A stretch of 14,099 nucleotides of DNA from a virus (IMGVR_UViG_3300032038_006501:71889-85987); one strand, 5' to 3'. Counted from the stretch's first letter, positions 1 through 14,099 are shown. Notes: generated from the sequence alone by a model not told the origin. A program made the numbers and translations.

Positions 1-476
1 CTACTAAATTTACCTTACTAAAGTATGCGGGCAAGGATACAAATAAAACTCCAATTGGAGGAGCAACTTTTAATTTACTAGATACTAATGGTAATAAAGT
101 TCAATTCTATGAAATCATTCCTAATCAAAAATATCGTTTAACAACTTCAGAAGATAGCAGTTCTATGACTGATATTGTTACAGCCGCAGGAAAAACTGTT
201 GAAATTGAAGGTTTAGATGCGGATATTACTTATCAATTAAAAGAAATTAAAGCTCCGCAAGGATATGATTTATTAACTGAAACTATTGCAATTCAAGCTC
301 CAGATGATTTATCTTTAGTTGTAGAAGTTGCAAATAATACTCATAGCATTCTTCCTTCTACTGGTGAAGATGGTATTTATCTTTACTATTTAATTGGAGC
401 ATTTTTATTAGTTGGTGGAATTTTAGTTATTATTGCTTCTAAAAAAAATAAAAAAGATATGGACAAAATTGTATAA
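1..476 (+). CDS. C-terminal part (5' truncated by the window edge, reading frame starts at nt 3) of an LPXTG-anchored cell-wall surface protein with a Cna-B/SpaA-pilin-like domain
   Basis: Frame is open from nt 3 to the TAA at 474-476. Translation ends ...NNTHSILPSTGEDGIYLYYLIGAFLLVGGILVIIASKKNKKD, which is LPSTG followed by a hydrophobic segment and a K-rich tail, the classic sortase sorting signal. Upstream FTLLKYAGKD..PIGGATFNLLD...EIKAPQGYDLL resembles the Gram-positive pilin / Cna-B isopeptide-domain pattern. The track's ATG at 165 is internal. Confidence 0.75.
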   Translation, partial: TKFTLLKYAGKDTNKTPIGGATFNLLDTNGNKVQFYEIIPNQKYRLTTSEDSSSMTDIVTAAGKTVEIEGLDADITYQLKEIKAPQGYDLLTETIAIQAPDDLSLVVEVANNTHSILPSTGEDGIYLYYLIGAFLLVGGILVIIASKKNKKDMDKIV

Positions 477-537
477 TATCTCACTATAATTTTTTATATT
501 TGTTAGAGATAATTTTCATTTAAAATGCAATAATAGA

Positions 538-577
538 GAACTTAGCAACACTATTGTTGTTAAGTTCTTTTTTTTAT
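538..577 (+). terminator. Rho-independent terminator after the surface-protein gene
   Basis: GAACTTAGCAACA-CTAT-TGTTGTTAAGTTC forms a 13-bp stem with one G.T wobble and a 4-nt loop. A T8 run follows at 568-575. Confidence 0.7.
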
Positions 578-613
578 AGAAATAGCAGTAATTAATAAGG
601 GGTGAGACGATTC

Positions 614-784
614 ATGATAAAACTATTAAACGTAGATACTCAATATAATATTTATGAATATTTTGTAGATTCAACAGAAGATATAGCAAATCTACCTACA
701 GATAGTCCAGGGTCAACCGCATTAGTTGCAGCTACTTCCGAGGTTTACATTTTAAACAATCAGGGTCAATGAACAATTCTTTAG
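614..784 (+). CDS. Small hypothetical protein (56 aa), intact only if the TGA at 770-772 is read as Trp
   Basis: ATG 614 preceded by AAGGGGTGA. It fills the gap between the terminator and the next gene. Translation under code 4 is MIKLLNVDTQYNIYEYFVDSTEDIANLPTDSPGSTALVAATSEVYILNNQGQWTIL. The TAG stop overlaps the SD of the downstream gene. Confidence 0.3.
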
Positions 785-799
785 AAGGAGGTATATTTT

Positions 800-1096
800 A
801 TGGATATTACAACATATGCTTTAGCTAAAAAATATACTGATTCTAAAGTTATTCAAGTCTCAGAGGGTATTGTCCCGCAAATTGGAGAAAATGGAAACTG
901 GATAATTGCGGGAGTAGATAGCGGAATTAAAGCATCTTCTGAACAAGTTGAAGTAGATGGTACAGGTAAATTAAAAGTTGATTCTACTAATGGAAATCTT
1001 TTAATAGTAGATGAAGATGGACATACTATTGCAACAATTACAGGACAACAAGAAATTTCTGATGATAATATAGACGCCTTGTTTGAAGATGATTAG
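800..1096 (+). CDS. Hypothetical protein (98 aa), paralogue of the next gene
   Basis: Strong SD GAAGGAGG 8 nt upstream of ATG 800. The N-terminus (TTYALAKKYTDSK) and C-terminus (ISDDNIDALFEDD) match motifs in the 1105-1404 product. Confidence 0.6.
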   Translation: MDITTYALAKKYTDSKVIQVSEGIVPQIGENGNWIIAGVDSGIKASSEQVEVDGTGKLKVDSTNGNLLIVDEDGHTIATITGQQEISDDNIDALFEDD

Positions 1097-1104
1097 GAGA
1101 AAAA

Positions 1105-1404
1105 ATGACACAGTATCTTAGTTATGAGGGTCTTCAAAAATATGATGAAAAACTCAAAAATTGAGTGCGGAATCAAGACTCTGTTTTACAACAATTAATT
1201 GGAAATGAATCAGTTTCAACTCAAATTACAAACGCTATCGCCGCACTTATTAATAGTGCTCCAACAGAATTTGATACTTTAAAAGAAGTTTCTGATTGAA
1301 TACAAGAACAAAAAATATTAAATACTCAAATTTCTGATAAATTAGATAAAATAGATGATATAGAAATAATCTCTTCCGAGGATATAGATTCTTTATTTAA
1401 TTAA
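1105..1404 (+). CDS. Hypothetical protein (99 aa) with a phage tail-fibre-like AP..DTL.E motif; needs TGA read as Trp (two in-frame TGA codons)
   Basis: SD AGGAGA precedes ATG 1105. Translation under code 4 is MTQYLSYEGLQKYDEKLKNW VRNQDSVLQQLIGNESVSTQITNAIAALINSAPTEFDTLKEVSDW IQEQ...IISSEDIDSLFN. The segment LINSAPTEFDTLKEV resembles the conserved tail-fibre N-terminal repeat (APxxLDTLxEL). The standard code breaks the ORF into fragments under 60 aa, so the track does not show it. Confidence 0.55.
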
Positions 1405-1410
1405 TATAAT

Positions 1411-1448
1411 AGGCTCGACTTTATTTTTTAAAGTCGGGCCTTTTTTTA
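1411..1448 (+). terminator. Rho-independent terminator
   Basis: AGGCTCGACTTT-ATTTTT-AAAGTCGGGCCT forms a 12-bp GC-containing stem (one T.G wobble). A T7 run follows. Confidence 0.75.
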
Positions 1449-1477
1449 TTGTCATATACCTTTTATTTTGATATAAT
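1449..1477 (+). promoter_or_regulatory. sigma70-like promoter: TTGTCA, 17-nt spacer, TATAAT
   Basis: TTGTCA at 1449-1454 and TATAAT at 1472-1477 with a 17-nt spacer, directly downstream of the terminator and ~60 nt upstream of the ATG at 1537. Confidence 0.5.
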
Positions 1478-1536
1478 TATATATAAAGAAATAACAGTGA
1501 ATATGCAAAAAGACTTCAATTGAAGGAGAATCAGGA

Positions 1537-1824
1537 ATGAGAATTAACATAATAAACAGCTATCTCAAAGAAGTAAATATAAATCCAAGATACATAACCC
1601 GAGCATATATAGATGAGAACGGTAAAGCGATAGTGACGATTGTCGGGTTCGAGAGTATATGGGGCGAGTACACAAATGAGGGCTATCAACTTCCATCAGA
1701 ATATACAATAGATATGGAATCTTACGAGCGCATCGTAGCATATATGGATACGGTAGAAAAACAGCAATACAAACTTAGTGAGTTAAATGATAAGCTGTGC
1801 GAACTTGGAATCAAGGTGAGTTAG
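1537..1824 (+). CDS. Hypothetical small protein A (95 aa), first gene of the GC-rich cassette
   Basis: SD GAAGGAG upstream. The ORF is open in the standard code and uses TGG for Trp. The C-terminus ...CELGIKVS is encoded by the junction repeat. Its TAG stop abuts the next ATG (TAGATG). Confidence 0.6.
   Translation: MRINIINSYLKEVNINPRYITRAYIDENGKAIVTIVGFESIWGEYTNEGYQLPSEYTIDMESYERIVAYMDTVEKQQYKLSELNDKLCELGIKVS
1799..1817 (+). repeat. Junction repeat copy 1: GCGAACTTGGAATCAAGGT
   Basis: First of three direct copies at the 3' ends of consecutive genes. It encodes (C)ELGIKV and contains the SD (AAGGTGA) for the next gene. Confidence 0.8.
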
Positions 1825-2136
1825 ATGGATGAAAACGAAATGATAGTGTGTGAGTTTCTACGCAAAATTGCACCGCCACGCGAGTGGAAATACCTTGGCG
1901 AAGTCGAGCATTACTGGATTAGTCAACTTTGTGACGAGTTGAACAAGCAGCTCAAGGCTGAGAACGCCAAACTGCGCAAGTATGCCAAGCTGTACGCTGG
2001 CGCAGTCAAGATTATTTGTGACCTATGCCCATACTGCGATGACTTCGAGACATGTAAAGACACGGAGGTTGAGCCGATGAGTGAAGGATGCGCTCTGCAC
2101 ATGGAAATGTGCGAACTTGGAATCGAGATAGACTAG
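1825..2136 (+). CDS. Hypothetical Cys-rich small protein B (103 aa)
   Basis: GC-rich codon usage (CTG, GCC, CGC). Cys-rich (CDLCPYCDDFETC...). The C-terminus ...MCELGIEID lies in the repeat. TAGATG junction with gene C. Confidence 0.6.
   Translation: MDENEMIVCEFLRKIAPPREWKYLGEVEHYWISQLCDELNKQLKAENAKLRKYAKLYAGAVKIICDLCPYCDDFETCKDTEVEPMSEGCALHMEMCELGIEID
2111..2129 (+). repeat. Junction repeat copy 2: GCGAACTTGGAATCGAGAT
   Basis: 16 of 19 positions identical to copy 1, including the TG(T/C)GCG lead-in. Confidence 0.8.
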
Positions 2137-2430
2137 ATGGCTAAGTATGTTGGCTTCAAGATTGGCAAAGTACATGAAAGCCATGTAATCAGTGAATACT
2201 ACTGTGGCAGTTGCGGGTTTCCCGTCACTGACCACGACAGCTTTTGCCCAGAATGCGGTGGAGCATTTCACGAGTGCGACGTAAGCAATCTCGAAAACGA
2301 GAATAAAAAGTTGCGGGAGTTGATTGACGAAGTACACGAGATGCTTTACACTGATAGGGCTGGTATGTTCCATAAGTTGATTCTTTCAGAATTGGAAGAT
2401 GGTATGCGCGAACTTGGAATTGAGGTATAA
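2137..2430 (+). CDS. Hypothetical zinc-ribbon small protein C (97 aa)
   Basis: CGSCG...CPECGG pattern (two CxxC pairs). The C-terminus ...MRELGIEV lies in the repeat. The TAA stop is followed one nt later by the next ATG. Confidence 0.6.
   Translation: MAKYVGFKIGKVHESHVISEYYCGSCGFPVTDHDSFCPECGGAFHECDVSNLENENKKLRELIDEVHEMLYTDRAGMFHKLILSELEDGMRELGIEV
2408..2426 (+). repeat. Junction repeat copy 3: GCGAACTTGGAATTGAGGT
   Basis: Third copy. The GAGGTA within it serves as SD for gene D. Confidence 0.8.
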
Positions 2431-2431
2431 A

Positions 2432-2779
2432 ATGGATGATTGTATGAGTTTTCCGCCATTATGGCAAGACTTCGTTGCAAAGTACCAATTTCGAGACAGA
2501 GAAGAGGTCTATACCAACGGCTCGAAACTGATACCTGTATTTCGCATCGAGCAGATGATGGAGCATTACCACGAGCATATTGAAGAAGAAAACGAAAAAC
2601 TCAAAATGCAGGTCGAAGCATTAAAGAATTATGCGCACGTTTTAAAGCTGTGCAAGGATCAAGCCTATTTGTGTGAATACTGCACATTTAATGGTATCGA
2701 TTTCGAACACAACGATATCAATTGCACTATCAATTTCAGCAAATTGCGAAAAAAGGCAGGGATGCAGAAAGAAAATTGA
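2432..2779 (+). CDS. Hypothetical Cys-containing small protein D (115 aa). It ends at TGA 2777-2779 in the standard code, and 4 codons later at TAA 2789-2791 if TGA is read as Trp.
   Basis: ATG 2432 with the GAGGTA SD is preferred over the overlapping track start at 2399. Last gene of the GC-rich block. Confidence 0.5.
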   Translation: MDDCMSFPPLWQDFVAKYQFRDREEVYTNGSKLIPVFRIEQMMEHYHEHIEEENEKLKMQVEALKNYAHVLKLCKDQAYLCEYCTFNGIDFEHNDINCTINFSKLRKKAGMQKEN

Positions 2780-2793
2780 GGAGATAATTAATA

Positions 2794-3402
2794 ATGGATA
2801 AAGTTACTATTATAGAAATTACCGAACATCCAATTGAAATTATTTCAAAAGGAGCAGGAACTAGCTATAAAAAAATTAATAATTCGTGACAAAGAGTTCA
2901 AACATGTATTAAAAATGGACATTTATCTGTAACTGAGTTTGCTCATATTAATTTTAAAATTGATGGAATTTCAAGAAGCTGTTTAGCACAATTAACTCGT
3001 CATCGTCTAATGTCTTTTTGTGTTGAATCTCAACGTTATGTCAAATATAATTTTAAAGATAATAATTGATATGTAATGCCAAAGGCTTTTAAAAAATCTA
3101 ATGCTTGAACTAGAAGATATATTTATGAAATGCGTAATGCAGCTTTAAGTTATAGACAAGCTATAGAAGATGGTATTAAACCAGAAGATGCTAGATTTCT
3201 TCTCCCAGAAGCAACAAAAACAAATTTAACTTGCGGGATGAATCTTAGAGAGTTTTTTAATTTTCTTAATTTAAGGCTTGATCCGCATGCACAATGAGAA
3301 ATTAGAGAATTGGCAGAAGAAATGTTTAATCAAGTATTAAATTATAATAATGAATGAAAAACTATTCTATCCTATTGGAAAGAAACTTGTTTTAATAAAT
3401 AA
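2794..3402 (+). CDS. thyX: Flavin-dependent thymidylate synthase ThyX (202 aa), intact only under translation table 4 (five in-frame TGA codons)
   Basis: SD GGAGAT upstream. The ThyX signature motif RHR-x7-S is present ([16 protein letters not shown]). Upstream matches include [15 protein letters not shown] (~ GHETPFEHIVFTFHV in Thermotoga ThyX). [15 protein letters not shown] aligns with T. maritima NFLNLRADSHAQWEI, and the W there is encoded by TGA. The standard-code track shows only sub-threshold fragments. Confidence 0.85.
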
Positions 3403-3408
3403 TTTTCT

Positions 3409-3438
3409 TTGTCAGTTGTTTTAAAAATATAGTATAAT
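3409..3438 (+). promoter_or_regulatory. sigma70-like promoter: TTGTCA, 18-nt spacer, TATAAT
   Basis: TTGTCA at 3409-3414 and TATAAT at 3433-3438, 25 nt upstream of the 3464 ATG. Confidence 0.5.
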
Positions 3439-3463
3439 AATATAAAAGAAAGGAGCAAGAGTA

Positions 3464-3643
3464 ATGACTAGAAAGAAAAAGCATTATAAACCAATACATA
3501 TTATGTCTAGCATAGAGCATACTCTTGCTCTAATGCCAAAATTTTATCCTGCTTCTCGTTGTGGGATAATTGGAGATACTTCTTATAATAGAAGAAAAGA
3601 AAAAAGAAATTTCCAAAGAGAACTCCAAGATGAGGGATATTAA
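3464..3643 (+). CDS. Small basic hypothetical protein (59 aa), first gene of the methyltransferase operon
   Basis: SD AAAGGAG 8 nt upstream of ATG 3464. Translation MTRKKKHYKPIHIM...NRRKEKRNFQRELQDEGY is Lys/Arg-rich. The stop lies 2 nt before the next ATG. It is below the track's length cut-off. Confidence 0.4.
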   Translation: MTRKKKHYKPIHIMSSIEHTLALMPKFYPASRCGIIGDTSYNRRKEKRNFQRELQDEGY

Positions 3644-3645
3644 AG

Positions 3646-4212
3646 ATGATTACTCAATATTCTTTTGGATTGAATACTCATGCAAGCAAGAATAATAATG
3701 TAAAAGATATTTGGAAAACTTGGAGTTGTGAAGAGATCCGTGCAGATTTACAACCCAATAGAAGTGCAATGATTAATATTTGTCAAAATTTAACTTCTGA
3801 TTTTAATAAAGGTACAATTATTAGAAGTCACAACGCTTTTCTTGGTAAAAGTGTATATATGATAGGTAAAAGAAAATATGATAAAAGAGGTGCTGTAGGT
3901 ACTTATCATTTAGAAACAGTTTATCATGCAGATACTTTTGAAGAAGTATTTACTTTATTAAAATCTCAAGGATATTTAATTTTGGCTGTTGATAATATTG
4001 AAAAATATAATCCAATAGCATTGAATGAAATAAGACTTCCATATTCTACTGCATTTGTTTATGGAGAAGAAAATGCGGGATTAGATGAAAAAACTATTAA
4101 GATGTGTGATGCTATGGTCTATATTAAGAATATTGGAAGTGTGCGGTCAATGAATGTAGGATGTGCCGCGAGCTGTTGTATGTATGAATATTCAAAACAA
4201 TGGAGGATATAA
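3646..4212 (+). CDS. SPOUT-class (SpoU/TrmH/TrmL family) RNA 2'-O-ribose methyltransferase (188 aa)
   Basis: The three SpoU motifs are present: NKGTIIRSHNAFLGKSVYMIG (N.G.IIR..A.G), FVYGEENAGLDEKTI (vFG.E..GL) and VYIKNIGSVRSMNVGCAASCCMYEY (IPM.G..RS.N...A..I..YE). The SPOUT core (~150 aa) is TrmL-sized, with a ~40-aa N-terminal extension. Confidence 0.8.
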   Translation: MITQYSFGLNTHASKNNNVKDIWKTWSCEEIRADLQPNRSAMINICQNLTSDFNKGTIIRSHNAFLGKSVYMIGKRKYDKRGAVGTYHLETVYHADTFEEVFTLLKSQGYLILAVDNIEKYNPIALNEIRLPYSTAFVYGEENAGLDEKTIKMCDAMVYIKNIGSVRSMNVGCAASCCMYEYSKQWRI

Positions 4213-4213
4213 A

Positions 4214-4948
4214 ATGAATCGAGCTAAAAGTCCTATGACTTATTATTCTAGTGATTTTCATTTTGGACATAATAGTCAATGGATTGATAATGATGGAATT
4301 CTACATAATCGAGGAATTATTACTTTTGAACGTCATCAATTTAAAACTATTAAAGAGCATGATGTCTATCTTATTCAATTAATCACAAATTGGTCTCAAC
4401 GCTGGGCAAAAGGTTCTGTTTTTTGGTTCCTTGGAGACTGGGGAAGTTTAGAATATCTTTGGATTATTCAACTTTTAAAAGATAATGGAATTGTTACTAA
4501 GATGATTCTTGGTAATCATGATTCTGTTTCTGATATCCCAATTTTTAAGCAATATTTTGATGAAGTTTATCAATATCCAGTCTTTATTTCTCAAAAACTG
4601 GTTCTTTCTCATTTTCCTGTAGCTGTTTATCCCGACCAAATTAATGTATGCGGTCATTTGCATGGAAGTAAATTAAAAGATGATAATCATGTCATAGCTT
4701 CTATTCATGTAGCTAATTATAATGCAATTTCTGATAAGAATCTTGCAGCAACTTTTAGTAAACTTCCAAAATTCACTCGTCGTTTTCTCTACGAGCCTTG
4801 GGCCGCAGATTATGTTTTTATTCAACCTAAAGAAGATGTAGTAATGGATAGAAATGGCAATATTGATCTTTCTGCATCTAGACTACTTCAAAGATTTAAT
4901 AAAGAAAAAAGGGATAAGAATGACCCTTATCAACCTTTTGTAGGATAA
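4214..4948 (+). CDS. Calcineurin-like metallophosphoesterase (244 aa), translationally coupled to the methyltransferase
   Basis: ATG 4214 lies 1 nt after the upstream stop, with GGAGGA as SD. The track's longer start at 4163 is rejected. Motifs SDFHFGH (DxH), GDWG (GDxx), GNHD and GHLHG (GHxH) are present. Confidence 0.8.
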   Translation: MNRAKSPMTYYSSDFHFGHNSQWIDNDGILHNRGIITFERHQFKTIKEHDVYLIQLITNWSQRWAKGSVFWFLGDWGSLEYLWIIQLLKDNGIVTKMILGNHDSVSDIPIFKQYFDEVYQYPVFISQKLVLSHFPVAVYPDQINVCGHLHGSKLKDDNHVIASIHVANYNAISDKNLAATFSKLPKFTRRFLYEPWAADYVFIQPKEDVVMDRNGNIDLSASRLLQRFNKEKRDKNDPYQPFVG

Positions 4949-4966
4949 TTTAAGAGGAGTTTTTTT

Positions 4967-5227
4967 ATGATTTATCAAATTGTAGCAAAAGAAAAACAAA
5001 TTGAAAATGAATGTGATGTTTGTACACTAGTTGTACCTACTTATTTAGAAGATTTTAATGAGAAAAAGGGATATAATTTTATTAATGAAGAACGTTTCTC
5101 TACTGATCTTGTAGATACTAAATTCCGTTATGTATCTGCTGATAATATTGTACAATTAAAAATTGCAATTTCAGAATTCAATCAAACAATTGGAGAAAAT
5201 GTAATTTCTCTTATTGAATTAATTTAA
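4967..5227 (+). CDS. Hypothetical protein (86 aa)
   Basis: SD AAGAGGAG upstream of ATG 4967. No recognisable motif. Confidence 0.5.
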   Translation: MIYQIVAKEKQIENECDVCTLVVPTYLEDFNEKKGYNFINEERFSTDLVDTKFRYVSADNIVQLKIAISEFNQTIGENVISLIELI

Positions 5228-5230
5228 TTT

Positions 5231-5260
5231 TTGACAGTCTCCCTTTTTCTATGATATAAT
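5231..5260 (+). promoter_or_regulatory. sigma70-like promoter: TTGACA, 18-nt spacer, TGaTATAAT (extended -10)
   Basis: TTGACA at 5231-5236 and TATAAT at 5255-5260 preceded by TG. It lies ~30 nt upstream of the 5292 ATG. Confidence 0.55.
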
Positions 5261-5291
5261 TATATTACAGAAAAGGAAAGGAGACTTAAAT

Positions 5292-5753
5292 ATGGAGTCC
5301 GACTTGAAGATTTTGCCACATGATATGCGTTTTTTTGAAATGGCAAAAGCTGAAGCAGAAAAAGGAACTTTTCCTCGATTTAAAATAGGATGCGTTGTAG
5401 TATATCGAGGAAAAGTTATTTCTTCTGCTTTTAATACACAAAAGCCAGACCCTGTGCAAAAGAAATATAACTCTTATAGAAAATTTAATAATATGAACAA
5501 TAAGGGTTGTATTAATCATTCTATTCATGCTGAAATTAGAGCATTAAAGCATATTTCTTATCCAATGTCTCAAAAAATAAATTGGTCTAAAGTTAAGATT
5601 TTTACTTATAGAATTAGTCCAGGTTTACCTTATGGACATGGAATGAGTCGTCCTTGTCCAGCTTGTATGCAATTTATTATGAATCACGGTATTCGTCAAA
5701 TTTATTATAGTACAGATATTGGATATGCAAAGGAGATAATTGAAGGATGCTAG
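5292..5753 (+). CDS. dCMP / cytidine deaminase family zinc enzyme (153 aa)
   Basis: HAEIRAL (H-A-E zinc/catalytic motif) and RPCPACMQFIMNHGIRQIYY (PCxxC). SD AAAGGAAAGGAG upstream. Confidence 0.8.
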   Translation: MESDLKILPHDMRFFEMAKAEAEKGTFPRFKIGCVVVYRGKVISSAFNTQKPDPVQKKYNSYRKFNNMNNKGCINHSIHAEIRALKHISYPMSQKINWSKVKIFTYRISPGLPYGHGMSRPCPACMQFIMNHGIRQIYYSTDIGYAKEIIEGC

Positions 5754-6022
5754 CTAGAATATATACTTCTAAAGAAATTCAAAATATATTAAAAAAGCAT
5801 AATGATGAATTAGATACTTGTTATACTATTTGTTATAAACAAAATGAGCCATATTTTTATTTACAAGAATTTAAAGATGGAAAATGACAAAATAAAAAAT
5901 TAACACAAGAAGAATCTAAAGAACTATTACTTAAAGATTTCTTTTATCAAATTGTTCCTAAATATTGGCATCTTTATTGTGATAATATATGTGGACATTA
6001 TATTTTAGTATGGGAAATGTAA
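5747..6022 (+). CDS. Hypothetical protein (91 aa), needs one TGA read as Trp; overlaps the deaminase stop (ATGCTAG)
   Basis: Open from ATG 5747 to TAA 6020-6022 under code 4 (…EFKDGKW QNKKLTQEE…). It is truncated in the standard code and absent from the track. Confidence 0.45.
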
Positions 6023-6023
6023 T

Positions 6024-6386
6024 ATGCCTTATAGCATGAAACCAATAGTTGGAATAATTGGTAGTAGGTCAATTACAACTTTAAATTTAGATTTATTTAT
6101 AGATAAAACTCATGTTGGAGAAATAGTAAGTGGCGGAGCTAATGGTGTAGATAAAATTGCAGAAAATTGAGCTAAAAAAAATAAAATCGAGTTTATTGCA
6201 ATGTTACCTAATTATAAATTATTAGGAAGTCATTGAGCTCCACTAAAAAGAGATGAAGATATTGTAGATTATTGTGATTTAATTATTTGCTTTTGAGATA
6301 CAAAATCTTCTGGTAGTAAATATACTATAAATTATGCCTTAAAAACAAGTAAACAAATCATTTTACATGAAATTATAGACAGATAG
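6024..6386 (+). CDS. SLOG-family protein (DUF2493 / DprA-Smf-like Rossmann fold), 120 aa; requires three TGA read as Trp
   Basis: Translation under code 4 is MPYSMKPIVGIIGSRSITTLNLDLF...VSGGANGVDKIAENW AKKNKIEFIAMLPNYKLLGSHW APLKRDEDIVDYCDLIICFW DTKSSGSKYTINYALK. The GSR...GGA.G.D..A..WA...........G.RN pattern is typical of phage DUF2493 proteins. Confidence 0.6.
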
Positions 6387-6399
6387 GGGAAAAACAATT

Positions 6400-6591
6400 A
6401 TGCTTTTTGGAAATGCTATGGAACGCGCTTTTCTAAAAGTTGGACTTATTAATCACAAACGCAAATCTCGTACTCCTAAAATTCGCACTTTTCCTTGCTA
6501 TAAATGTCAAGGAACTCTGGAAACTATTCCTTATACTAATGTAGCAGCTTGTCAAAATGAAAAGTGTAATAACAGGATTATATTTAATTAG
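6400..6591 (+). CDS. Small zinc-ribbon protein (63 aa)
   Basis: CYKC...(16 aa)...CQNEKC. SD-like GGGGAAAAA upstream. Confidence 0.5.
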   Translation: MLFGNAMERAFLKVGLINHKRKSRTPKIRTFPCYKCQGTLETIPYTNVAACQNEKCNNRIIFN

Positions 6592-6842
6592 TTTTAAATA
6601 GACCATTAAAGTCGTTATGCAAAAGCTAGACTTAGTCTTGGTCAGACTCTTGATTAATCAACTATACAGAGATTAATTAATGTTTGCTGCGGAAGGTAGA
6701 AAAGTTTAATTGTATAGAATTTAAAATAAGCCGCGTAAAAACTTTTCTCGAAGGAAATTTCTTTTAAAGGTTTTGAATAACATGCGTAGTTGGATAATAA
6801 ATGAAAAACCTTTTTCTAATTTATTTTTTATGAAAGGTTAAA
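6592..6842. other. 250-nt non-coding island with several inverted repeats; candidate ncRNA, regulatory element or origin-like element
   Basis: Stop codons in all six frames even under code 4. Paired segments include AGAAAAGTTT (6698-6707) with AAACTTTTCT (6739-6748), CTATACAG with TTGTATAG, and AGTCT-TGGTC-AGACT. It is the only gap longer than 120 nt in this compact stretch. Confidence 0.3.
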
Positions 6843-7031
6843 ATGTACGAAGAATATTATGATGAGTTTGAAGAATTTGATTCTTTTGAAAAAATTTCTC
6901 ATCAAATTCCAAAAGGTTTTAAAGGAAATAAACATTATAAATCAAATCAAGATAAATATAAAGCTCGTCGTAAGGCAAAAACCCAAGAGAAACAAAGAAT
7001 GATAGAAAATCAACAATCTTTTTATGAATAG
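6843..7031 (+). CDS. Small charged hypothetical protein (62 aa)
   Basis: SD AAAGGTTAAA upstream. Acidic N-terminus and basic C-terminus. Confidence 0.45.
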   Translation: MYEEYYDEFEEFDSFEKISHQIPKGFKGNKHYKSNQDKYKARRKAKTQEKQRMIENQQSFYE

Positions 7032-7039
7032 AGGTTGTT

Positions 7040-7828
7040 ATGGAAAGTAATATTAAAAAAAGAGTAAGTCAGCATTTGCGGGAAGCCATAGATAAAGATG
7101 CTGTAACTGAAAAAGGTTGATTTATTATAGCTCCATATGGTTCTATGAATTATGGCTTATATGACTATGATAGTGATGTAGATAGTAAAATTATTAAAGT
7201 TCCTAATATGAAGGAAATTATAAAAAATATAGGCTCACGTGGAAGCTTGACCCGCACGCTTAATTTTAATAATGAAAAAATAGAAATTAAAGATACAAGA
7301 GAATTTTTTCGTATTCTTAAAACAGGTTCTATTAATTTTATGGAAATTTTATTTTCAGATTATATTCAAGTAAATTCTTTATATGAGGAAGAGTGGAATT
7401 TACTTTGTAGCAAAAGAGAAGCTTTAGCTTATGCATATCCTGAAAATACATTATCTTCTTCTCTTGGAATGGCTAAAACAAAATATCGTAATTTAGAGAA
7501 ACAAGATTATGATAATTGTAATTTAAAAGATTTTATGACTCTTATGAGATTAGAATTTTTTGTAAAAAACTATCTTGAAAAGGTTCCTTATAAAAAATGT
7601 ATTACTGTTGAAGATTTACCAGAAGTTCAAGAATTATGGCTAAAATTTAAACATCAAAAAACAATAAATGTTGAAGGTTTTAATCGTATTTTATTAGAAG
7701 CTCAATTAATTGTTTCTAGAATAGCAAGTATGGTAGAAAATAGTAATATGAAAACTGATTATTCTATGGATAATTTTATATATGATATTAATAATAAATT
7801 AATTTTAAAGAGAATTAAGGAGACTTAA
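7040..7828 (+). CDS. Pol-beta-superfamily nucleotidyltransferase (262 aa). The true start is ATG 7040, upstream of the track's 7145, and reaching it requires TGA 7118-7120 read as Trp.
   Basis: SD AGAGGT lies 5 nt upstream of ATG 7040. The N-terminus MESNIKKRVSQHLREAIDKDAVTEKGW FIIAPYGSMNYGLYDYDSDVD carries the hG[GS]-x9-13-DxD nucleotidyltransferase signature (GS...SDVD). Its stop sits immediately before the GTG of the next gene (TAAGTG). Confidence 0.7.
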
Positions 7829-8266
7829 GTGAAAAATCAAATTCTAAAAGATTTTTGGGATGCAGAAAATGGAATTTGTGAACTGGTTGTACTAAATAAA
7901 TGGGGAAAATTTTCCGCAAAAGCAATTTGTTCAAAAGAAGATAAAGATGTTCTTAGTTATTGGACTGGAATTCATCTTTGTGAATATAAAATTTTAATTA
8001 AAACTCTTCAAGCAAAAGCTTTAGCATTTGATCAGCGAGTTATTGGTATTAAACATGCTATTAATGTTTTACACAATATTGATTCTCAAGCTAAATGGTG
8101 TGCAAAAACAAATGGAGATAGCTATTTTAATCTTTGGTGCTGTGTAGAAGCTACTGAACTAGAAGCTAAAAAAATTCGTGCTAAAATTAAAGAACTTAAA
8201 AAAGATTATCCTATTTATGCAGAATATTTAATTAGTTCTAAAAGAAAAATTTCAAATAAAGATTAA
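7829..8266 (+). CDS. Hypothetical 145-aa protein coupled to the nucleotidyltransferase; contains an R-x5-H motif (QRVIGIKHAIN) that could be HEPN-like
   Basis: GTG start with AAGGAG 8 nt upstream. Tightly coupled to the nucleotidyltransferase. No definitive motif; the HEPN suggestion rests only on the R-x5-H motif. Confidence 0.55.
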   Translation: MKNQILKDFWDAENGICELVVLNKWGKFSAKAICSKEDKDVLSYWTGIHLCEYKILIKTLQAKALAFDQRVIGIKHAINVLHNIDSQAKWCAKTNGDSYFNLWCCVEATELEAKKIRAKIKELKKDYPIYAEYLISSKRKISNKD

Positions 8267-8280
8267 AAGGAGTTTTTAAA

Positions 8281-9051
8281 ATGAGTGGTCGTATTTTTGT
8301 AGTAGCTGATATTCATGGCTCTGCGGCCGTAGTAAAAAATATTATTTCTTTAATTGGCAACCCAAGACCGGATGATGTTATTATTGTCGCTGGAGATGCT
8401 GGTTTTGAGTATGGTAAACATATTATGGGTTCTGCAAAAAGGGCTGCTCATAGATTTGTTGGTAAATGGATTGTTATGAGAGGTAATCATGACAATTGTT
8501 ATCAAGATAATCATACTCATTGGGATGAAGAAAAACAAAATTATGATTTAGATGCTGGATGGTCTTGGGCAGAGGATGGATATTCTTTATATCAAAACAA
8601 ATATCCTAATATTTTATATGTTCCTGATAGTGGAGGAATTTTAAAAATTAAAGATTTTAATTTTCTTTTTTGTCCAGGAGCTTATTCTATAGATAAGATG
8701 TATCGTTTAAGAATGAATTATCCTTATAATTTTAATGAGCAGCTATCTGTAGAAGATATGAATAAACTAATTGATATTGTTAAAAATTGGAATAAAAATG
8801 GTTTTGATATTGATTATGTAATTGGACATACTTTTCCACTTTATTTAGAGCGTCACTATCGTGATTTATTCATGTCTGGTATTTCTCAAACCTCTATAGA
8901 TAAAACTACAGAAAAATGGTTAGATATTATCAGTGAAGAATATGAAAGAAATCCTGCTTTTAAACAATATTATGGTGGACATTTTCATAATTCTCGCGTT
9001 TTAGATGATAAATATACTATGGTTTATCAAACTCCAGTTCAAATTGTTTAA
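8281..9051 (+). CDS. Calcineurin-like metallophosphoesterase (256 aa), second copy of this fold in the window
   Basis: VVADIHGS (DxHG), VAGDAGFEYG (GDxx), MRGNHDN (GNHD), IGHTF and GGHFHNS (GHxH). SD AAGGAG upstream. Confidence 0.8.
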   Translation: MSGRIFVVADIHGSAAVVKNIISLIGNPRPDDVIIVAGDAGFEYGKHIMGSAKRAAHRFVGKWIVMRGNHDNCYQDNHTHWDEEKQNYDLDAGWSWAEDGYSLYQNKYPNILYVPDSGGILKIKDFNFLFCPGAYSIDKMYRLRMNYPYNFNEQLSVEDMNKLIDIVKNWNKNGFDIDYVIGHTFPLYLERHYRDLFMSGISQTSIDKTTEKWLDIISEEYERNPAFKQYYGGHFHNSRVLDDKYTMVYQTPVQIV

Positions 9052-9064
9052 ACCTTCTTTCTAA

Positions 9065-9100
9065 TGGTCTAAATTTCATTAAATTTAGGCCATTTTTTTT
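9065..9100 (+). terminator. Rho-independent terminator
   Basis: TGGTCTAAATTT-CATT-AAATTTAGGCCA forms a 12-bp stem (one T.G wobble). A T8 run follows at 9093-9100. Confidence 0.7.
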
Positions 9101-9103
9101 CTT

Positions 9104-9133
9104 TTGACAGTTATTAAAATTTTTTGATATAAT
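9104..9133 (+). promoter_or_regulatory. sigma70-like promoter: TTGACA, 18-nt spacer, TGaTATAAT
   Basis: TTGACA at 9104-9109 and TGATATAAT at 9125-9133. Same architecture as the 5231 promoter, directly after the terminator. Confidence 0.55.
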
Positions 9134-9163
9134 ATAAATAAAGAAAAGAGAGGTGTTAATAAT

Positions 9164-11074
9164 TTGAATAATTTTTATAAAAACGACTCAATTGAGTCAC
9201 TTACTCCACGAGAACATGTTAGACTTCGTCCAGGAATGTACGCGGGAGATACCAGTGATGCAACACAACTTGCAATAGAAATTTTGGGAAATTCTATTGA
9301 TGAGTTTAATATTGGTCATGGAGATTTAATCGAAATTTATATAAATCCCGATTGGATTGATGAACAAAATGTTATTCTAATTCGCGATCATGGTCAGGGG
9401 TTTCCGATAAATGTTCAACGAGATGATGGAGAAACAGTTCTTCAAGCTTCTTTTGATGTTATTAATACTTCTGGTAAATATCGTGATGACGGTGTGTATG
9501 AAGGAACGGCAATTGGTTTAAATGGAATTGGAGCAAAATTAACTAATTTTCTTTCTCATAAATTGAATGTAGTTTCTTTCGATGATGAAGGTAATTTTGA
9601 GTCTATTTTTTTTACAGAAGGAATTTTTGAAAAAAGAGAAACAGGAAAATTAATTCATGCTTCTGGTACAGAAGTAGCTTTTATTCCCAGTGAAGAATTT
9701 TTTACTTCACCTACAATAAATGAGAAAAAGTTAAAAGATTTTTGTGAAGATATTACTTGTTTATGTGAAGGTCTTACTATTATTTTTAATAATGAGACTA
9801 TTAAGCATGAAAATGGTATTCAAGATTTATTAATTAAACATCTTGGTAAAGAAATTGAAATTCTTAATAATCCATTATTTATCCAAGAGAAGAGAAATAA
9901 ACAAGCTATTTCATTAGGACTAACTTATACAAGTAAAGGTTCTTCTACTATTATTCCTTATGTTAATTGTGGATTAACATCATCTGGCCCGCATATTACA
10001 GCTATTAAATCAACAATTACACGTGTTTTAAATAAATGGGCAAAAGAACAAGGAATATTAAAAGCTAAAGATAAAAATTTAGATGGTTCTTCTCTTCAAG
10101 AAGGATTAATTTTAGTTGCTAACATTACAGCAGAAAATGTAGCTTATAATGCTCAAATTAAATCTACAATTACTAAAATTGATACTAGTTTTATAAATAC
10201 TATACTTGCGGAGCAGCTTGAAATTTGGCTTGATAATAATGTTGAAGATGGTACTAAAATTATTGAAAAAGCTCTTATAGCTCGTAAAGCCGCAGAAGCT
10301 GCTAAGAAAGCTAGAGAGCAAGTCAAAAATAAAGCAAATAAATCTGAAAAAAAGAAAAATATTCAACTACCTACAACTTTAACAGATTGTTGGAGCAAAG
10401 ATAGAACAAAATGTGAATTATTAATTTGCGAAGGTAAGTCAGCTGCATCTGGATTAGTAGCAGCAAGAGATAGTGAGATACAAGCAGTTTATGGTGTTAG
10501 AGGGAAAATGTTAAGCGTTTTAAAAACAGCTCCCGCAAATATTTATAAAAATAAAGAAATTAATAATTTAGTTCAAGCTCTTGGATTACCGGTTAATTCT
10601 GCGGATTGTAAATTAACATATGACGCATCTAAACTTCGTTATGGAAAAATTATAGCTTGTGCAGATGCAGATCCAGACGGTTCAGCTATTGAAAACTTAC
10701 TATTTAATATTTTATGGTATATGTGTCCAGAACTAATAATTAATGGTCATGTTTATTCAGCAGTACCACCTCTTTATAAAGTAATTACTAATAAAAATGA
10801 GTATATTTATCTTAAAGGGGATAAAGAGTTAAAAGAATGTCAACAAAATTGTACTATTAAGACGATAAATCGTTTAAAGGGACTTGGCGAAATGGACTCA
10901 ACAGAGCTTAACGAAACTCTATTAGATCCAATCACAAGACAAGTTTTACAACTTGAAGTAAAAGATTTTAAAGAAACTGATAAAATTTTTACAGATCTTT
11001 ATGGTAAAGTAGTTGAACCAAGAATTAAATTTTTACAAGAGCATGGAGAGGAAGCGAGAGCTGATTATGAATAG
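9164..11074 (+). CDS. Type II DNA topoisomerase large subunit, GyrB-like, with ATPase, transducer and Toprim domains fused (636 aa; compare the T2/T6-type fused gp39+gp60)
   Basis: TTG start with GAGAGGTG SD. N-terminus EHVRLRPGMYAGDT resembles GyrB VRKRPGMYIGDT. GHKL ATPase boxes are present: EILGNSIDE, IRDHGQGFP, GLNGIGAKLTNFLS. ARKAAEAAKKARE...LPTTLTDC resembles the GyrB transducer end. Toprim motifs ELLICEGKSAASG and CADADPDGSAI are present. Confidence 0.9.
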   Translation: MNNFYKNDSIESLTPREHVRLRPGMYAGDTSDATQLAIEILGNSIDEFNIGHGDLIEIYINPDWIDEQNVILIRDHGQGFPINVQRDDGETVLQASFDVINTSGKYRDDGVYEGTAIGLNGIGAKLTNFLSHKLNVVSFDDEGNFESIFFTEGIFEKRETGKLIHASGTEVAFIPSEEFFTSPTINEKKLKDFCEDITCLCEGLTIIFNNETIKHENGIQDLLIKHLGKEIEILNNPLFIQEKRNKQAISLGLTYTSKGSSTIIPYVNCGLTSSGPHITAIKSTITRVLNKWAKEQGILKAKDKNLDGSSLQEGLILVANITAENVAYNAQIKSTITKIDTSFINTILAEQLEIWLDNNVEDGTKIIEKALIARKAAEAAKKAREQVKNKANKSEKKKNIQLPTTLTDCWSKDRTKCELLICEGKSAASGLVAARDSEIQAVYGVRGKMLSVLKTAPANIYKNKEINNLVQALGLPVNSADCKLTYDASKLRYGKIIACADADPDGSAIENLLFNILWYMCPELIINGHVYSAVPPLYKVITNKNEYIYLKGDKELKECQQNCTIKTINRLKGLGEMDSTELNETLLDPITRQVLQLEVKDFKETDKIFTDLYGKVVEPRIKFLQEHGEEARADYE

Positions 11075-13166
11075 TATTAATGTTATTTCAGAGATTTCTC
11101 AAAACTTTCTTGATTCATCTCTTGAAACAAATATGAATAGAGCTTTTCCGAATATTTTAGACGGTTTAAAACCCGGTCAACGCGCTTGTATTTGGGAAAT
11201 GTATATAAAGAAATATACAAGCAAAAAACCTCATGTAAAATCTGCTAAAGTAAGTGGTGGTGTTATTGCTGATTTATGGCCACACTCTGATGTAGCTATT
11301 TATGAAACTTTTGCTCGTATGTCTCAACCATTTATTAATAATATTCCTGAAATTGATTGGCATGGAGCAAATGGTAATCCTATTCTTGGTGGAGATGCTT
11401 TAGCAAATCAACGTTATACCGAATGTCGTTTAGCAGCTATTACAGAAGATGGTATGCTTCAAGGAATTAATAAAAATAATGTAGATATGATTCCTAACTT
11501 TAGTGAAGATGCTAAATGGCCTAAGGTATTACCAGCAATCTTTCCTCGTCTTCTTGTTAACGGAGCACAAGGAATTGGAGTATCTTTATCAAATACTTGG
11601 CTTTGTCATAATTTTACCGAAACAGCCCAATTAATTTTTGATTATATCCGCACAGGAATTGTGGATAATGATAATTATTATCCTGATTTCCCAACAGGTG
11701 GAATTATAGTAAATAAAAAAGATTTACCAGAAATTAATAAAACTGGTAAAGGTAAAGTTATTATTGAAAGTAAATATACTATTAATGGAAATGAAATTAA
11801 TTTTTCAGAACTTCCTTATCAAGTATATATTGAACCAGTAATTGATGAAATTAAAAAAGGAATCCAAGAGGGTAAGATTACTGGAATTCAAGAAATTTAT
11901 AATAAATCTGATAAAAATAGAATTCTTTTAACTATTGAGTGTGAAAATAATTATAGTCCAGAACAAGTAGTTCTTCAATTATTTGAAAGCACTAATCTTC
12001 GTAAACAATATAATGCTAATCAAAATGGTATTATTAGTAAAACTCCAATTATGATTACTCTTGAGCAATATCTTCAAGAATATGTTAAACATAATCTTAA
12101 TTGTATTAAAAGAGAATTTCAATATGATTTAAACGAAACAAGTGAAAAAATTGAAATTCTTGAAGGATTAGTAAAAGCTTTAGAAGATATTGATAATATT
12201 ATTCAAACAATTAAACAGAGTAAAAATACTTCAGAAGCTAAAATTAATTTAATTAATAGATTCAATTCTACAGAATTACAAGCAGATGCAATTCTTAAAA
12301 TGAGACTTAGTAAATTAGCAAATATGGAAAAAATTGCTATTAATAATGAGCTCCAAGAGAAAAAGGAATTTGCATTATATTGTGCGGGAATTGTTGAATC
12401 AACAGATAAACAAAAAGAAGTTCTAATTAATAGATTAGAAGAACTTGTTAAAAAATATGGAGACAAGCGCCGCACACAAGTAATTCAAAAAGAAATTGCT
12501 TCTAAAGATAAGAAGAAAAAAGAAAAAGTTATTAAAGATGTAGTTATTACTTATGATGAAAAAGGTTATTTACAAAATATTCCTATTTCTATGTATAAGA
12601 AAATTGGGACTAAAGTAAATGTCCTTAAAATGAAGTCGAATGAATTATTTTTACTTTTCTCTTCTCTTGGACGAATTTTTAAAGTAAGAGCAGAAGAGAT
12701 TAAAGAATGCGGGAATCGAGATAAAGGTCAGGCAGTTGGAACTATTTTAAGCCTCGCCCCGCAAGAAAAGATTCTAAATATTTTTAATATGGGAATAGAT
12801 AAAAAACATCCTTATATTATTTTCTTTACTAAATATGGTTTAATAAAAAAGACTAATAAAGATATTTGGATTACAACAACTCAAAATAAAAAGGGAATGA
12901 AAGGAATTTCTCTTAGAGAAAATGATTCTATTGTAGGAGTTTTTGAAAGCAATGGAGATTTAGCGATTGTTAAAAGTAAAACTCATATTATTAAATTTGA
13001 AGTAGAATTTATTAGAGCTACTAAAAATGGATATGGAGTAAAAGCTATTTCTCTTGATGAAGATGATATAGTAGAAAGTGTAGAGATTATTCCTAAAAAT
13101 TCTATTAAATATAATAATATTAAAGTTCAAAGTCATGGTGGCAGAGGAGTTCTTATTCATGTCTAG
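11067..13166 (+). CDS. Type II DNA topoisomerase subunit, GyrA/ParC-like (T4 gp52-like), with a truncated beta-pinwheel C-terminal domain (699 aa)
   Basis: ATG 11067 overlaps the upstream stop (ATGAATAG). This start is preferred over the track's TTG at 11013 because it leaves a 23-aa lead before NRAFPNILDGLKPGQR (compare T4 gp52 NRAIPNMIDGFKPVQR). The catalytic Tyr context NQRYTECRL resembles GyrA RYTE. C-terminal GyrA-box-like blades are present: KGQAVGTILSL..., KGMKGISLREND..., NGYGVKAISLDEDD. Confidence 0.88.
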   Translation: MNSINVISEISQNFLDSSLETNMNRAFPNILDGLKPGQRACIWEMYIKKYTSKKPHVKSAKVSGGVIADLWPHSDVAIYETFARMSQPFINNIPEIDWHGANGNPILGGDALANQRYTECRLAAITEDGMLQGINKNNVDMIPNFSEDAKWPKVLPAIFPRLLVNGAQGIGVSLSNTWLCHNFTETAQLIFDYIRTGIVDNDNYYPDFPTGGIIVNKKDLPEINKTGKGKVIIESKYTINGNEINFSELPYQVYIEPVIDEIKKGIQEGKITGIQEIYNKSDKNRILLTIECENNYSPEQVVLQLFESTNLRKQYNANQNGIISKTPIMITLEQYLQEYVKHNLNCIKREFQYDLNETSEKIEILEGLVKALEDIDNIIQTIKQSKNTSEAKINLINRFNSTELQADAILKMRLSKLANMEKIAINNELQEKKEFALYCAGIVESTDKQKEVLINRLEELVKKYGDKRRTQVIQKEIASKDKKKKEKVIKDVVITYDEKGYLQNIPISMYKKIGTKVNVLKMKSNELFLLFSSLGRIFKVRAEEIKECGNRDKGQAVGTILSLAPQEKILNIFNMGIDKKHPYIIFFTKYGLIKKTNKDIWITTTQNKKGMKGISLRENDSIVGVFESNGDLAIVKSKTHIIKFEVEFIRATKNGYGVKAISLDEDDIVESVEIIPKNSIKYNNIKVQSHGGRGVLIHV

Positions 13167-14099
13167 TTTATATCCAGAATCTTGGCAAATTCCACCTATG
13201 AAATATTGTTCTAAAGCATCTGATAAAGCCGCAAGACAAGCTTTCGAATCAGGTGATTTTATCATGCAAGAAAAATATGACGGAGCTTTATATCAATTAG
13301 AGAAAACTGATTCTGGATATATTTATTTATTTTCTAGAACAAAATCTCGTAAAACAGGAGAGCTTGTAGAAAAGTCTGATAACTTTCCTCATATTAAGAA
13401 ATGGGCTGAATGGGCTATTCCAAATGGAACTATTCTTGTAGGTGAAATTTATGTAGAAGGTGGACATTCTAATGATGTGACTAAATTATCTGGATGTTTA
13501 CCTCAAAATGCAGTTAAACGTCAGTTTGATTCAAATGAATATGGCGGTCCTGTAAAATATAAAGTATTTGATATTATTAGATTTGCAGGAGAAGATATTC
13601 AAAATAAACCGACTATTGAAAGAATTGATAATTATTTAAATAATACTAGTTTAGATTATTCTTTTTCTGATAGATATGTACAAAGAGTAACTACTTATTA
13701 TGATAATTTTGAAGAACGACTTCAACAAATTTTTAAAAATGGTGGAGAAGGTGCTGTTTTTAAAAATAAAAATTGTCCATATCGTGCGGGAAAACGCTCA
13801 ACTGTATCTCAGGCTTTTAAGTGGAAACAACATTTAGATTCTATTGATTTAATTTGTACAGAATTAATAGACCCAGAAGATTATTATACGGGAAAAGAAA
13901 TTGAAAGTTGGCCTTATTGGATGGAACATTCAAAAACAATTAATAAAGAAAATTTATGGTATCCAATATATGGCTTATATTATGAAAAATATAAAAAACG
14001 CCCGCATGTATATAAACCAGTAACAAAGCCAGCGTATTTTGGTTGGAAAAATGCTATGGCTCTTGGATGCTTTAATAAAAAAGGAGCAATTGTTCATGT
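13159..14099 (+). CDS. ATP-dependent DNA ligase, 3' truncated by the window end (313 codons visible)
   Basis: ATG 13159 overlaps the topoisomerase stop (ATGTCTAG). Motif I is KYDGAL (K-x-D-G). Motif III is LVGEIYV. Motif IV is EGAVFK, followed by CPYRAGKRS. Motif V is AFKWK. The long IV-V spacing with GKRS matches T7-type DNA ligases rather than Rnl1. Confidence 0.8.
   Translation, partial: MSSLYPESWQIPPMKYCSKASDKAARQAFESGDFIMQEKYDGALYQLEKTDSGYIYLFSRTKSRKTGELVEKSDNFPHIKKWAEWAIPNGTILVGEIYVEGGHSNDVTKLSGCLPQNAVKRQFDSNEYGGPVKYKVFDIIRFAGEDIQNKPTIERIDNYLNNTSLDYSFSDRYVQRVTTYYDNFEERLQQIFKNGGEGAVFKNKNCPYRAGKRSTVSQAFKWKQHLDSIDLICTELIDPEDYYTGKEIESWPYWMEHSKTINKENLWYPIYGLYYEKYKKRPHVYKPVTKPAYFGWKNAMALGCFNKKGAIVH

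Follow-up and report, generated by a model that had tools for sequence, protein, structure and literature searches.

The 14,099-nucleotide stretch of viral DNA analysed here (IMGVR_UViG_3300032038_006501:71889-85987, taken at its full length and referred to throughout as the window) carries genes that differ sharply in their use of TGA as a tryptophan (Trp) codon. A gene map of the window built under genetic code 4 comprised 24 genes, all located on the plus strand (Table 1), and placed 13 in-frame TGA codons in six of them (770; 1162, 1297; 2887, 3067, 3106, 3295, 3355; 5885; 6168, 6234, 6294; 7118), compared with 51 TGG codons in the window genes, which terminate with TAA or TAG only and never with TGA. 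The original prediction, made from the window alone, had given 13 TGA codons read as Trp, a number that the recount returned exactly, together with over 50 TGG codons in the topoisomerase, ligase, phosphoesterase, methyltransferase and deaminase genes, a figure that holds for the window as a whole (51) but not for the seven named enzymes, which contain 36. An additional and ambiguous TGA at 2777, outside the count of 13, lies four codons 5' of the TAA that closes the last gene in a cassette rich in guanine and cytosine (GC), with the ribosome-binding site of thyX directly after it, and is probably the relic of the ancestral stop codon of that last open reading frame (ORF).

The gene-by-gene split in TGA usage was confirmed as real and far from random. 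Heterogeneity in TGA and TGG usage between the window genes gave G = 51.9, a value as high as which was reached by none of 50,000 permutations (p ~2e-5), and the probability that all 36 Trp codons in the seven TGG-only enzymes would be TGG was 1.3e-6. Base composition did not separate the two classes, the GC content of thyX (0.27) and the DUF2493 gene (0.26) being close to that of the topoisomerase II A subunit gene (0.28) and the 145-residue gene (0.27).

Table 1. Genes and other features of the window, with in-frame TGA and TGG codons where counted.
Feature	Position	Strand	Basis or remark
SpaA-type pilin with LPXTG anchor, C-terminal part	1-476	+	Pfam SpaA, Gram_pos_anchor; no Trp codon in window part
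Terminator-like hairpin 3' of pilin gene	535-570	+	Consensus scan
56-residue gene, TGA at 770, four codons before TAG	614-784	+	Codon read as Trp
98-residue gene	800-1096	+	TGG at 899 is TGA in three relatives
99-residue tail-fibre-like gene, TGA at 1162 and 1297	1105-1404	+	PHROG tail-fibre matches; both TGG in some relatives
Terminator-like hairpin	1411-1441	+	Consensus scan
Sigma70-like promoter match, 11/12 positions, after the 1411-1441 hairpin	1449-1477	+	Consensus scan
GC-rich cassette of four small ORFs, GC 0.37-0.48 versus 0.29	1537-2791	+	No internal TGA
thyX, flavin-dependent thymidylate synthase, 5 TGA / 1 TGG	2794-3402	+	Pfam Thy1 1.9e-50, spanning all five TGA
Sigma70-like promoter match, 11/12 positions, 5' of SpoU operon	3409-3438	+	Consensus scan
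SpoU/SPOUT methyltransferase, 0 TGA / 3 TGG	3646-4212	+	Domain match
244-residue phosphoesterase-like gene, 0 TGA / 7 TGG	4214-4948	+	Metallophos match weak, in relatives only
Perfect sigma70 consensus (12/12), extended -10 (TG), 5' of deaminase-to-phosphoesterase operon	5231-5260	+	Consensus scan
dCMP deaminase, 0 TGA / 1 TGG	5292-5753	+	Pfam
91-residue gene, TGA at 5885	5747-6022	+	Codons 5885 and 5966 TGA or TGG among relatives
DUF2493/YAcAr (SLOG) gene, 3 TGA / 0 TGG	6024-6386	+	Pfam YAcAr, DNA_processg_A
RlaP-type nucleotidyltransferase, TGA at 7118 and 2 TGG	7040-7828	+	TGA 7118 is TGG in three relatives
145-residue gene, 0 TGA / 5 TGG	7829-8266	+	Codon 7961 is TGA in L005
Metallophosphoesterase, 0 TGA / 6 TGG	8281-9051	+	Pfam
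Terminator-like hairpin	9063-9094	+	Consensus scan
Perfect sigma70 consensus (12/12), extended -10 (TG), 5' of topoisomerase B	9104-9133	+	Consensus scan
Type II topoisomerase B subunit, 0 TGA / 5 TGG	9164-11074	+	
Type II topoisomerase A subunit, 0 TGA / 6 TGG	11067-13166	+	
ATP-dependent DNA ligase, N-terminal part, 0 TGA / 8 TGG	13159-14099	+	

The window constitutes the end of an 86-kb metagenome contig held by ENA. Comparison of the first and last 200 bases established a match except that positions 14084-14099, a total of 16 bases, extend beyond the end of the ENA contig, so that the source of the window must be a different copy, or a different assembly, of this genome. Whole-window megablast against GenBank phages returned no match, tblastn of topoisomerase A against the same collection yielded identities of 31% or less with no annotated close relative, and an exact-protein look-up of topoisomerase A was likewise without a match. 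The genome was walked in IMG/VR by means of chimeric protein queries, which led to two contig pairs, each derived from one metagenome sample and ~95% identical to the window. The resultant composite genome measured 147.3 kb with overlapping contig ends; the assembled data indicate a circular genome of ~148 kb originating from rumen or gut metagenomes, and related contigs of 148.5 kb and 150.5 kb agree with a circle of that size. Its minus-strand block contains genes for portal, terminase, head, virion and tail/baseplate-like proteins, giant leucine-rich-repeat proteins and a GH25+CHAP endolysin, and its plus-strand block those for DNA polymerase III alpha, a DnaB-like helicase, a RecJ-like protein, NrdD, topoisomerase II, ligase and RuvC, plus an array of 25 transfer RNA (tRNA) genes.

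A count of TGA and TGG per gene over the composite genome (277 TGA and 301 TGG; 48% TGA) revealed the same unevenness on a larger scale (permutation p <5e-5). The late (virion plus lysis) block contained 200 TGA and 58 TGG (78% TGA) and was homogeneous between genes (p = 0.065), the accessory segment at 63-84 kb, made up of tail-fibre-like genes, a reverse transcriptase, the pilin and the tRNA array, contained 35 and 30 (54%), and the replication segment at 84-115 kb contained 15 and 105 (12%), with 11 of those 15 TGA codons confined to thyX (5 TGA/1 TGG), YAcAr (3/0) and RuvC (3/0). The window looks split because the accessory segment gives way to the replication segment within it. Among the 71 genes with at least three Trp codons, 31 were devoid of TGA, all of them outside the late block. 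Other two-fold codon pairs ending in A or G (lysine, glutamate, glutamine, leucine) were 82-92% A-ending in both blocks: late-block TGA is therefore at its neutral expectation, and the TGG of the replication genes is held far from neutral.

This distribution fits the earlier suggestion that, as in certain phages, recoded stop codons are placed in a distinct gene class, although not along the line then drawn between accessory or nucleotide-metabolism genes and long replication genes, since the dCMP deaminase, the SpoU methyltransferase and two phosphoesterases are without TGA. The class that is rich in TGA genome-wide consists of virion, tail-fibre, surface and lysis genes, accompanied by thyX, DUF2493/YAcAr and RuvC. 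A uniform code-4 cellular gene set of the Mollicutes type was rejected on account of the 31 TGA-free genes and the presence of virion and cell-wall-related genes. To attribute the split to chance or local mutation bias is scarcely credible: many genes do have few Trp codons, and four of the 13 window TGA codons are polymorphic singletons, but the permutation probabilities for both window and genome, the equality of GC and A-ending codon fractions in the two classes, and the recurrence of the pattern in a recoded relative (L205; 84% ThyX identity) all run counter to it. In that relative the respective TGA/TGG counts were 5/1 for thyX, 2/1 for YAcAr, 0/3 for SpoU and 0/7 for a 246-residue gene.

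Comparative sequence data indicate that TGA encodes Trp in functional genes, as had been supposed in the original prediction. Among five relatives at 90-99% nucleotide identity, variable Trp codons alternated between TGA and TGG only (seven sites: 899, 1162, 1297, 5885, 5966, 7118 and 7961), the sole other change being from TGG to CGG. The TGA at 770 was likewise TGG in L205, where the downstream TIL-stop is kept, and TGA in five close relatives, and all five TGA codons of thyX were kept in five close relatives. Since ThyX structures in the PDB were too distant for judging the TGA positions, an alignment of 30 homologs (43-57% identity) was used, in which TGA codons 92, 168 and 188 corresponded to invariant or nearly invariant Trp residues; the three TGA sites of YAcAr were occupied by W, Y and W in a standard-code ortholog (L198). 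Over the composite genome, positions coded by TGA were aligned in standard-code relatives with TGG-encoded Trp in 44 of 66 cases and with tyrosine or phenylalanine in 14 of 66, a profile identical to that of TGG positions, and Trp densities in the TGA-rich and TGA-poor blocks (1.36 versus 1.38 per 100 residues) were equal only with TGA counted as Trp.

The ratios of non-synonymous to synonymous polymorphism (pN/pS) were 0.14 for thyX and 0.11 for YAcAr. Taken with the Trp swaps and the conserved Trp sites, these low values exclude both pseudogenes and selenocysteine. There is consequently a negligible probability that the TGA-containing ORFs are pseudogenes, selenoprotein genes or instances of programmed read-through, a proposal in favour of which can be cited the score of the window contig's UCA-anticodon tRNA, 50 bits against an Rfam tRNA-Sec gathering score of 47. 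By way of contrast, Pfam matches run through the TGA codons, pN/pS is 0.11-0.14, differences at TGA codons are all swaps with TGG, TGA falls on invariant Trp, the composite genome has as many as 277 such codons, and relatives at 95% identity have an ordinary 7/5 cloverleaf at the same position of the tRNA array. Selenocysteine decoding was separately rejected, given that the 277 TGA codons are at Trp positions and that the tRNA, with its 8/4 arrangement, has a 12-bp helix (13-bp acceptor/T in tRNA-Sec) and A1-U72.

The maintenance of the split was apparent from substitutions separating the window from a 95%-identical contig (contig A). Within the TGG-only genes, xAG had become xAA at 25 of 79 sites and TGG had become TGA at 0 of 39, a contrast with a probability of ~4e-7 if the change from TGG to TGA were neutral, which indicates that selection is acting against TGA in these genes. 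Three relatives with ~50% protein identity (L196-L198) carry the same module of thyX, SpoU, Metallophos, PhoH, deaminase, YAcAr and RlaP genes at a GC content of 0.39-0.42, with in-frame TGG only and TGA used as a stop. As the module is shared, both classes of gene have resided equally long in the lineage, and it is therefore selection that maintains the difference between them; the possibility that the TGG-only genes are recent imports was rejected on the same grounds, these genes being syntenic with the TGA-rich genes in standard-code relatives. The thyX of another standard-code homolog (L204), with a different gene neighbourhood and genes ending in TGA, was likewise TGG-only, and the late-gene orthologs of two further standard-code relatives (L049, L054) contained no TGA. 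These comparisons indicate that the lineage was recoded from a standard-code ancestor alongside a fall in GC, so that the earlier description of the genome as recently or partly recoded was a fair one, the lineage including standard-code relatives.

The Mollicutes setting originally envisaged is not borne out by the gene content. The phage codes for an LPXTG pilin, a sortase (L020 2246-3049; 3 TGA/0 TGG) and a GH25+CHAP endolysin, whose peptidoglycan-binding match is weak and falls under the Pfam cut-off; together these genes point to a walled Gram-positive host rather than a Mollicute, and most likely one that still uses the standard code. That the host is itself a code-4, Mollicutes-like organism mirrored by its phage, with the TGG-only genes as recent standard-code imports, is very improbable. 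The AT-rich DNA (GC 0.29), the use of TGA for Trp and the absence of any window gene ending in TGA would all be in keeping with such a host; the cell-wall-related genes would not, and neither would the possession by the phage of its own UCA tRNA, the synteny of TGG-only and TGA-rich genes in standard-code relatives, with the equal residence time that this implies, or the ongoing selection against TGA, which would be unexpected in a code-4 host. As a separate observation, the phage-encoded 602-residue SpaA-type LPXTG pilin, together with the phage's own sortase, suggests that the phage directs a surface pilus, or anchoring, on a host that is Gram-positive.

The suppressor tRNA that the original prediction had called for is represented by the sole UCA tRNA among the 25 phage tRNA genes. 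These genes form a single array that precedes the window by 2-9 kb, the UCA tRNA being located at L003 1566-1661, 7.5 kb upstream. In the window contig the acceptor and T stems of this tRNA comprise 8 and 4 bp (8/4), its D stem has 6 bp and closes a 4-nt loop, and its variable arm is long. It also bears A1-U72 and G73, acceptor features that are identity elements of tRNA-Trp in bacteria. In the corresponding place of the array the 95%-identical relatives have a tRNA of different sequence and ordinary 7/5 cloverleaf form, yet both the 8/4 and 7/5 versions exhibit a variable-arm hairpin with the 7-nt loop GUCCAAA, a copy of the tRNA-Trp anticodon loop, which in the phage tRNA-Trp(CCA) is CUCCAAA. 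The array itself varies among 95%-identical genomes, for example with Val(UAC) or Leu(UAG) beside the UCA tRNA, which points to cassette exchange, and HNH and GIY-YIG homing-endonuclease genes are interspersed within it (L002, L003 and L004, positions 1-7800). Within the array, tRNA-Trp(CCA) has as its neighbour a ROOL RNA of full length (Rfam RF03087, 292 bits; L003 4606-5253), which precedes the window by ~4 kb.

A pattern scan of IMG/VR recovered 18 further tRNAs of this kind on large phage contigs, and a total of 33 distinct two-armed tRNAs was assembled, mostly from phage or phage-like contigs and mostly with A1-U72 and G73. Such UGA-reading tRNAs are 95-98 nt in length and are labelled tRNA-SeC by ARAGORN; besides the L003 gene they are found at L002 1170-1265, L055-L075 and L076-L195, and loci that carry one mostly gain long ORFs under code 4. 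Some of the extra arms are near-exact duplicates of the real anticodon arm with C34 for U34 (cgggu-CUCCAAA-acccg versus gcggu-CUUCAAA-accgu). The UCCAA loop, which was required for inclusion in the set, is invariant in 22 distinct hairpins, and their extra-arm stems, the inner four pairs of which were a selection criterion for the two-armed set, covaried, with 52 double changes compared with 15.7 in shuffles, a level reached by none of 500 shuffles; at least four flanking pairs were present in 31 of the 33 sequences (chance ~2% per sequence).

A metagenome scan for long-armed UCA tRNAs in which the variable loop was left unconstrained returned 106 distinct matches, roughly 80% of which were tRNA-Sec-like (G1-C72) and without a UCCAA arm. 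Nearly all of those that were not Sec-like had UCCAA in the variable-arm hairpin, 15 with UCCAAA and the rest with one-base variants such as UCCAAC, UCCAU and UCCAC. Among 185,579 species genomes, scanned for the tRNA motif with a view to the host, it was located in only five contigs of metagenome-assembled genomes, 3-42 kb in length and of mixed taxonomy. No description of a two-armed tRNA was found in the literature searched, a result that is not proof of novelty. It may tentatively be proposed, with less than even confidence, that these molecules are an undescribed class of two-armed tRNA in which the extra arm is a decoy CCA anticodon for the host tryptophanyl-tRNA synthetase (TrpRS) and the seryl-tRNA synthetase (SerRS) is evaded. 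On that proposal the decoy arm would allow the tRNA to go on receiving Trp in spite of its UCA working anticodon, and the molecule would escape SerRS despite its long variable arm.

For the genome as a whole, the explanation that we consider likely is that the phage recodes TGA to Trp within a standard-code host, that its genes fall into permissive and protected classes according to timing, and that TGA serves as a translational gate. In the permissive class (virion, tail-fibre, surface and lysis genes, a sigma-factor-like gene, thyX, DUF2493/YAcAr and RuvC), TGA and TGG are interchangeable and TGA has drifted to the level of the AT-rich mutation bias (~80%), and from the protected class (topoisomerase, ligase, polymerase, helicase, NrdD, SpoU, phosphoesterase and deaminase genes) it is removed by selection. 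If translation of the protected genes relies on a host machinery that is still unmodified and stops at UGA, and permissive genes are needed only after the suppressor tRNA has accumulated, each TGA would therefore act as a translational gate. Both thyX and YAcAr share predicted operons with TGG-only genes, behind sigma70-like promoter matches identified by consensus scans, and thus appear to be co-transcribed with TGA-free genes; any delay imposed on them by TGA would act at translation, gene by gene within the operon. The first gene of the late block (composite 28,811-29,896, minus strand; L039/L043 region) matches PHROG 5767 'sigma factor' (4.8e-27), and its Trp codons are 7/7 TGA, as against 7/7 TGG in its standard-code ortholog in L049. 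Should the label be correct, late transcription, too, would be made possible by the code switch.

Several considerations weigh against timing and gating. Since thyX and YAcAr lie directly 3' of TGG-only genes and behind sigma70-like promoter matches, the timing of transcription cannot be what sets their class. The gene for the suppressor tRNA shares a same-strand block with early-type genes, the designations 'early' and 'late' derive from gene function and strand blocks only, and the sigma-factor label comes from the PHROG match alone, a Pfam search of the same gene having found nothing. The standard code of the host is itself deduced from cell-wall-related phage genes and the selection signal. 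Finally, simple motif searches of the composite genome, which provide a weak negative, found no release-factor gene, including that for release factor 1 (RF1; motif GGQ), and no TrpRS gene (motif KMSKS).

An unlikely alternative invokes yield rather than timing: suppression at UGA would compete with host release factor 2 (RF2), and genes needing accuracy or quantity would avoid TGA at all times. The sharing of predicted operons and promoters by TGA-free and TGA-bearing genes fits a per-gene cost of this kind better than it fits a transcriptional class, and neither RF1 nor an anti-RF2 function was found by simple motif search. However, the largest and presumably most abundant products are also the most TGA-rich, among them a 3,924-residue protein with 62 TGA codons, which needs near-complete suppression when expressed, the lysin (17 TGA and 7 TGG, i.e. 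17/24), the portal and the terminase, and TGA in the late block stands at the neutral A/G level. Gating by timing is preferred, and the interpretation offered in the original prediction is partly supported.

The closest known systems are the TGA-recoded Agate phages of animal guts, cattle included, with genomes of ~127-154 kb (Borges et al., bioRxiv 10.1101/2021.08.26.457843; Nat Microbiol 2022). In these phages recoding affects the structural and lysis genes, the replication genes keep the standard code, and close standard-code relatives exist; early genes are proposed to be host-readable and recoded genes to be translated after the phage suppressor tRNA, with low GC and loss of the TGA stop as the proposed route to recoding (bioRxiv 10.1101/2021.08.26.457843). 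The genome described here resembles that account in its reading of TGA as Trp, its recoded late genes, the spread of recoded modules over the genome, its suppressor tRNA and its standard-code relatives, and the size of ~148 kb, the source, the code and the relatives are all consistent with membership of the Agate clade. Three features differ in that they were not found in the preprint text consulted: thyX, YAcAr and RuvC genes saturated with TGA amid TGA-free replication genes, with sigma70-like promoter matches ahead of two of the three, a sigma-factor-like gene with 7/7 TGA heading the late block, and a suppressor tRNA of unusual shape. The TGA layout is accordingly already published for such phages, and the selection measurements and apparent within-operon islands refine the published model.

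Block-wise dual coding has also been described for TAG-recoded crAss-like and Lak phages (Mgcod; bioRxiv 10.1101/2022.06.29.495998). The division of the genome into standard-code and recoded blocks, the suppressor tRNAs and the recoding of late genes are held in common, but those phages reassign TAG to glutamine and infect Bacteroidetes, and in the present genome the transition between codes occurs from one gene to the next inside predicted operons and not only from block to block. A different comparison is offered by cellular code-4 genomes: those of the Mycoplasmatales and Entomoplasmatales use TGA in all gene classes, are not known to have RF2 and deploy an ordinary class I tRNA-Trp(UCA). 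The phage shares with them the AT-rich DNA and the reading of TGA as Trp via a tRNA with a UCA anticodon, and is distinguished by the 31/71 genes with at least three Trp codons that avoid TGA under selection and by the long variable arm of its tRNA. As for the tRNA itself, tRNA-Sec, allo-tRNAs and selC* tRNA-Cys (Mukai et al., NAR 2017, PMC5389517; review PMC7609411) resemble that of the window contig in the 8/4 arrangement, the 6-bp D stem, the long variable arm and G73, and differ from it in that the latter has A1-U72, a GUCCAAA variable loop and relatives of the 7/5 form, and reads Trp codons.

A number of other features of the window and composite genome merit brief record. The complete pilin gene (L001 388-2196) codes for 602 residues and has four in-frame TGA codons, all upstream of the window. 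The GC-rich cassette at 1537-2791 is missing from four of five close relatives, which have genes of 176 and 213 residues in its place; three of its ORFs share a terminal ELGI(K/E)(V/I) motif, and a zinc ribbon is present in one. In the accessory segment, a 759-residue tail-fibre-like gene (L016 741-3020) is followed by a 359-residue reverse transcriptase (L016 3473-4552; Pfam RVT_1; 5 TGA/2 TGG), a pair that could possibly be a diversity-generating retroelement. The late block contains giant leucine-rich-repeat proteins, BspA- or DUF285-like as judged by eye (L028 143-14770, reverse strand of contig B2), of 3,924 residues (62 TGA/11 TGG) and 946 residues (10/2), the repeats of which fall at assembly breaks between contigs. 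A TROVE-domain (Ro60-like) protein is encoded at composite 58,939-60,390 (0/7 TGA/TGG), in a phage that also has a ROOL RNA and 25 tRNAs.

The TGA split confirms the published idea that a private codon may serve a phage as a timer for its late genes, and supplies a sharper measure of it, in that TGA-saturated genes lie beside TGA-free genes within one conserved module and the removal of TGG to TGA changes can be quantified. Of the leads from this analysis, the two-armed tRNA most deserves to be followed. If it is true that the extra arm recruits TrpRS, this would explain how the reading of TGA could be recoded in a standard-code host without a phage synthetase, and why tRNA finders either miss such tRNAs or label them 'SeC'; it would also provide a design principle for engineered suppressor tRNAs, in which the anticodon contact of the synthetase is placed on a separate arm.

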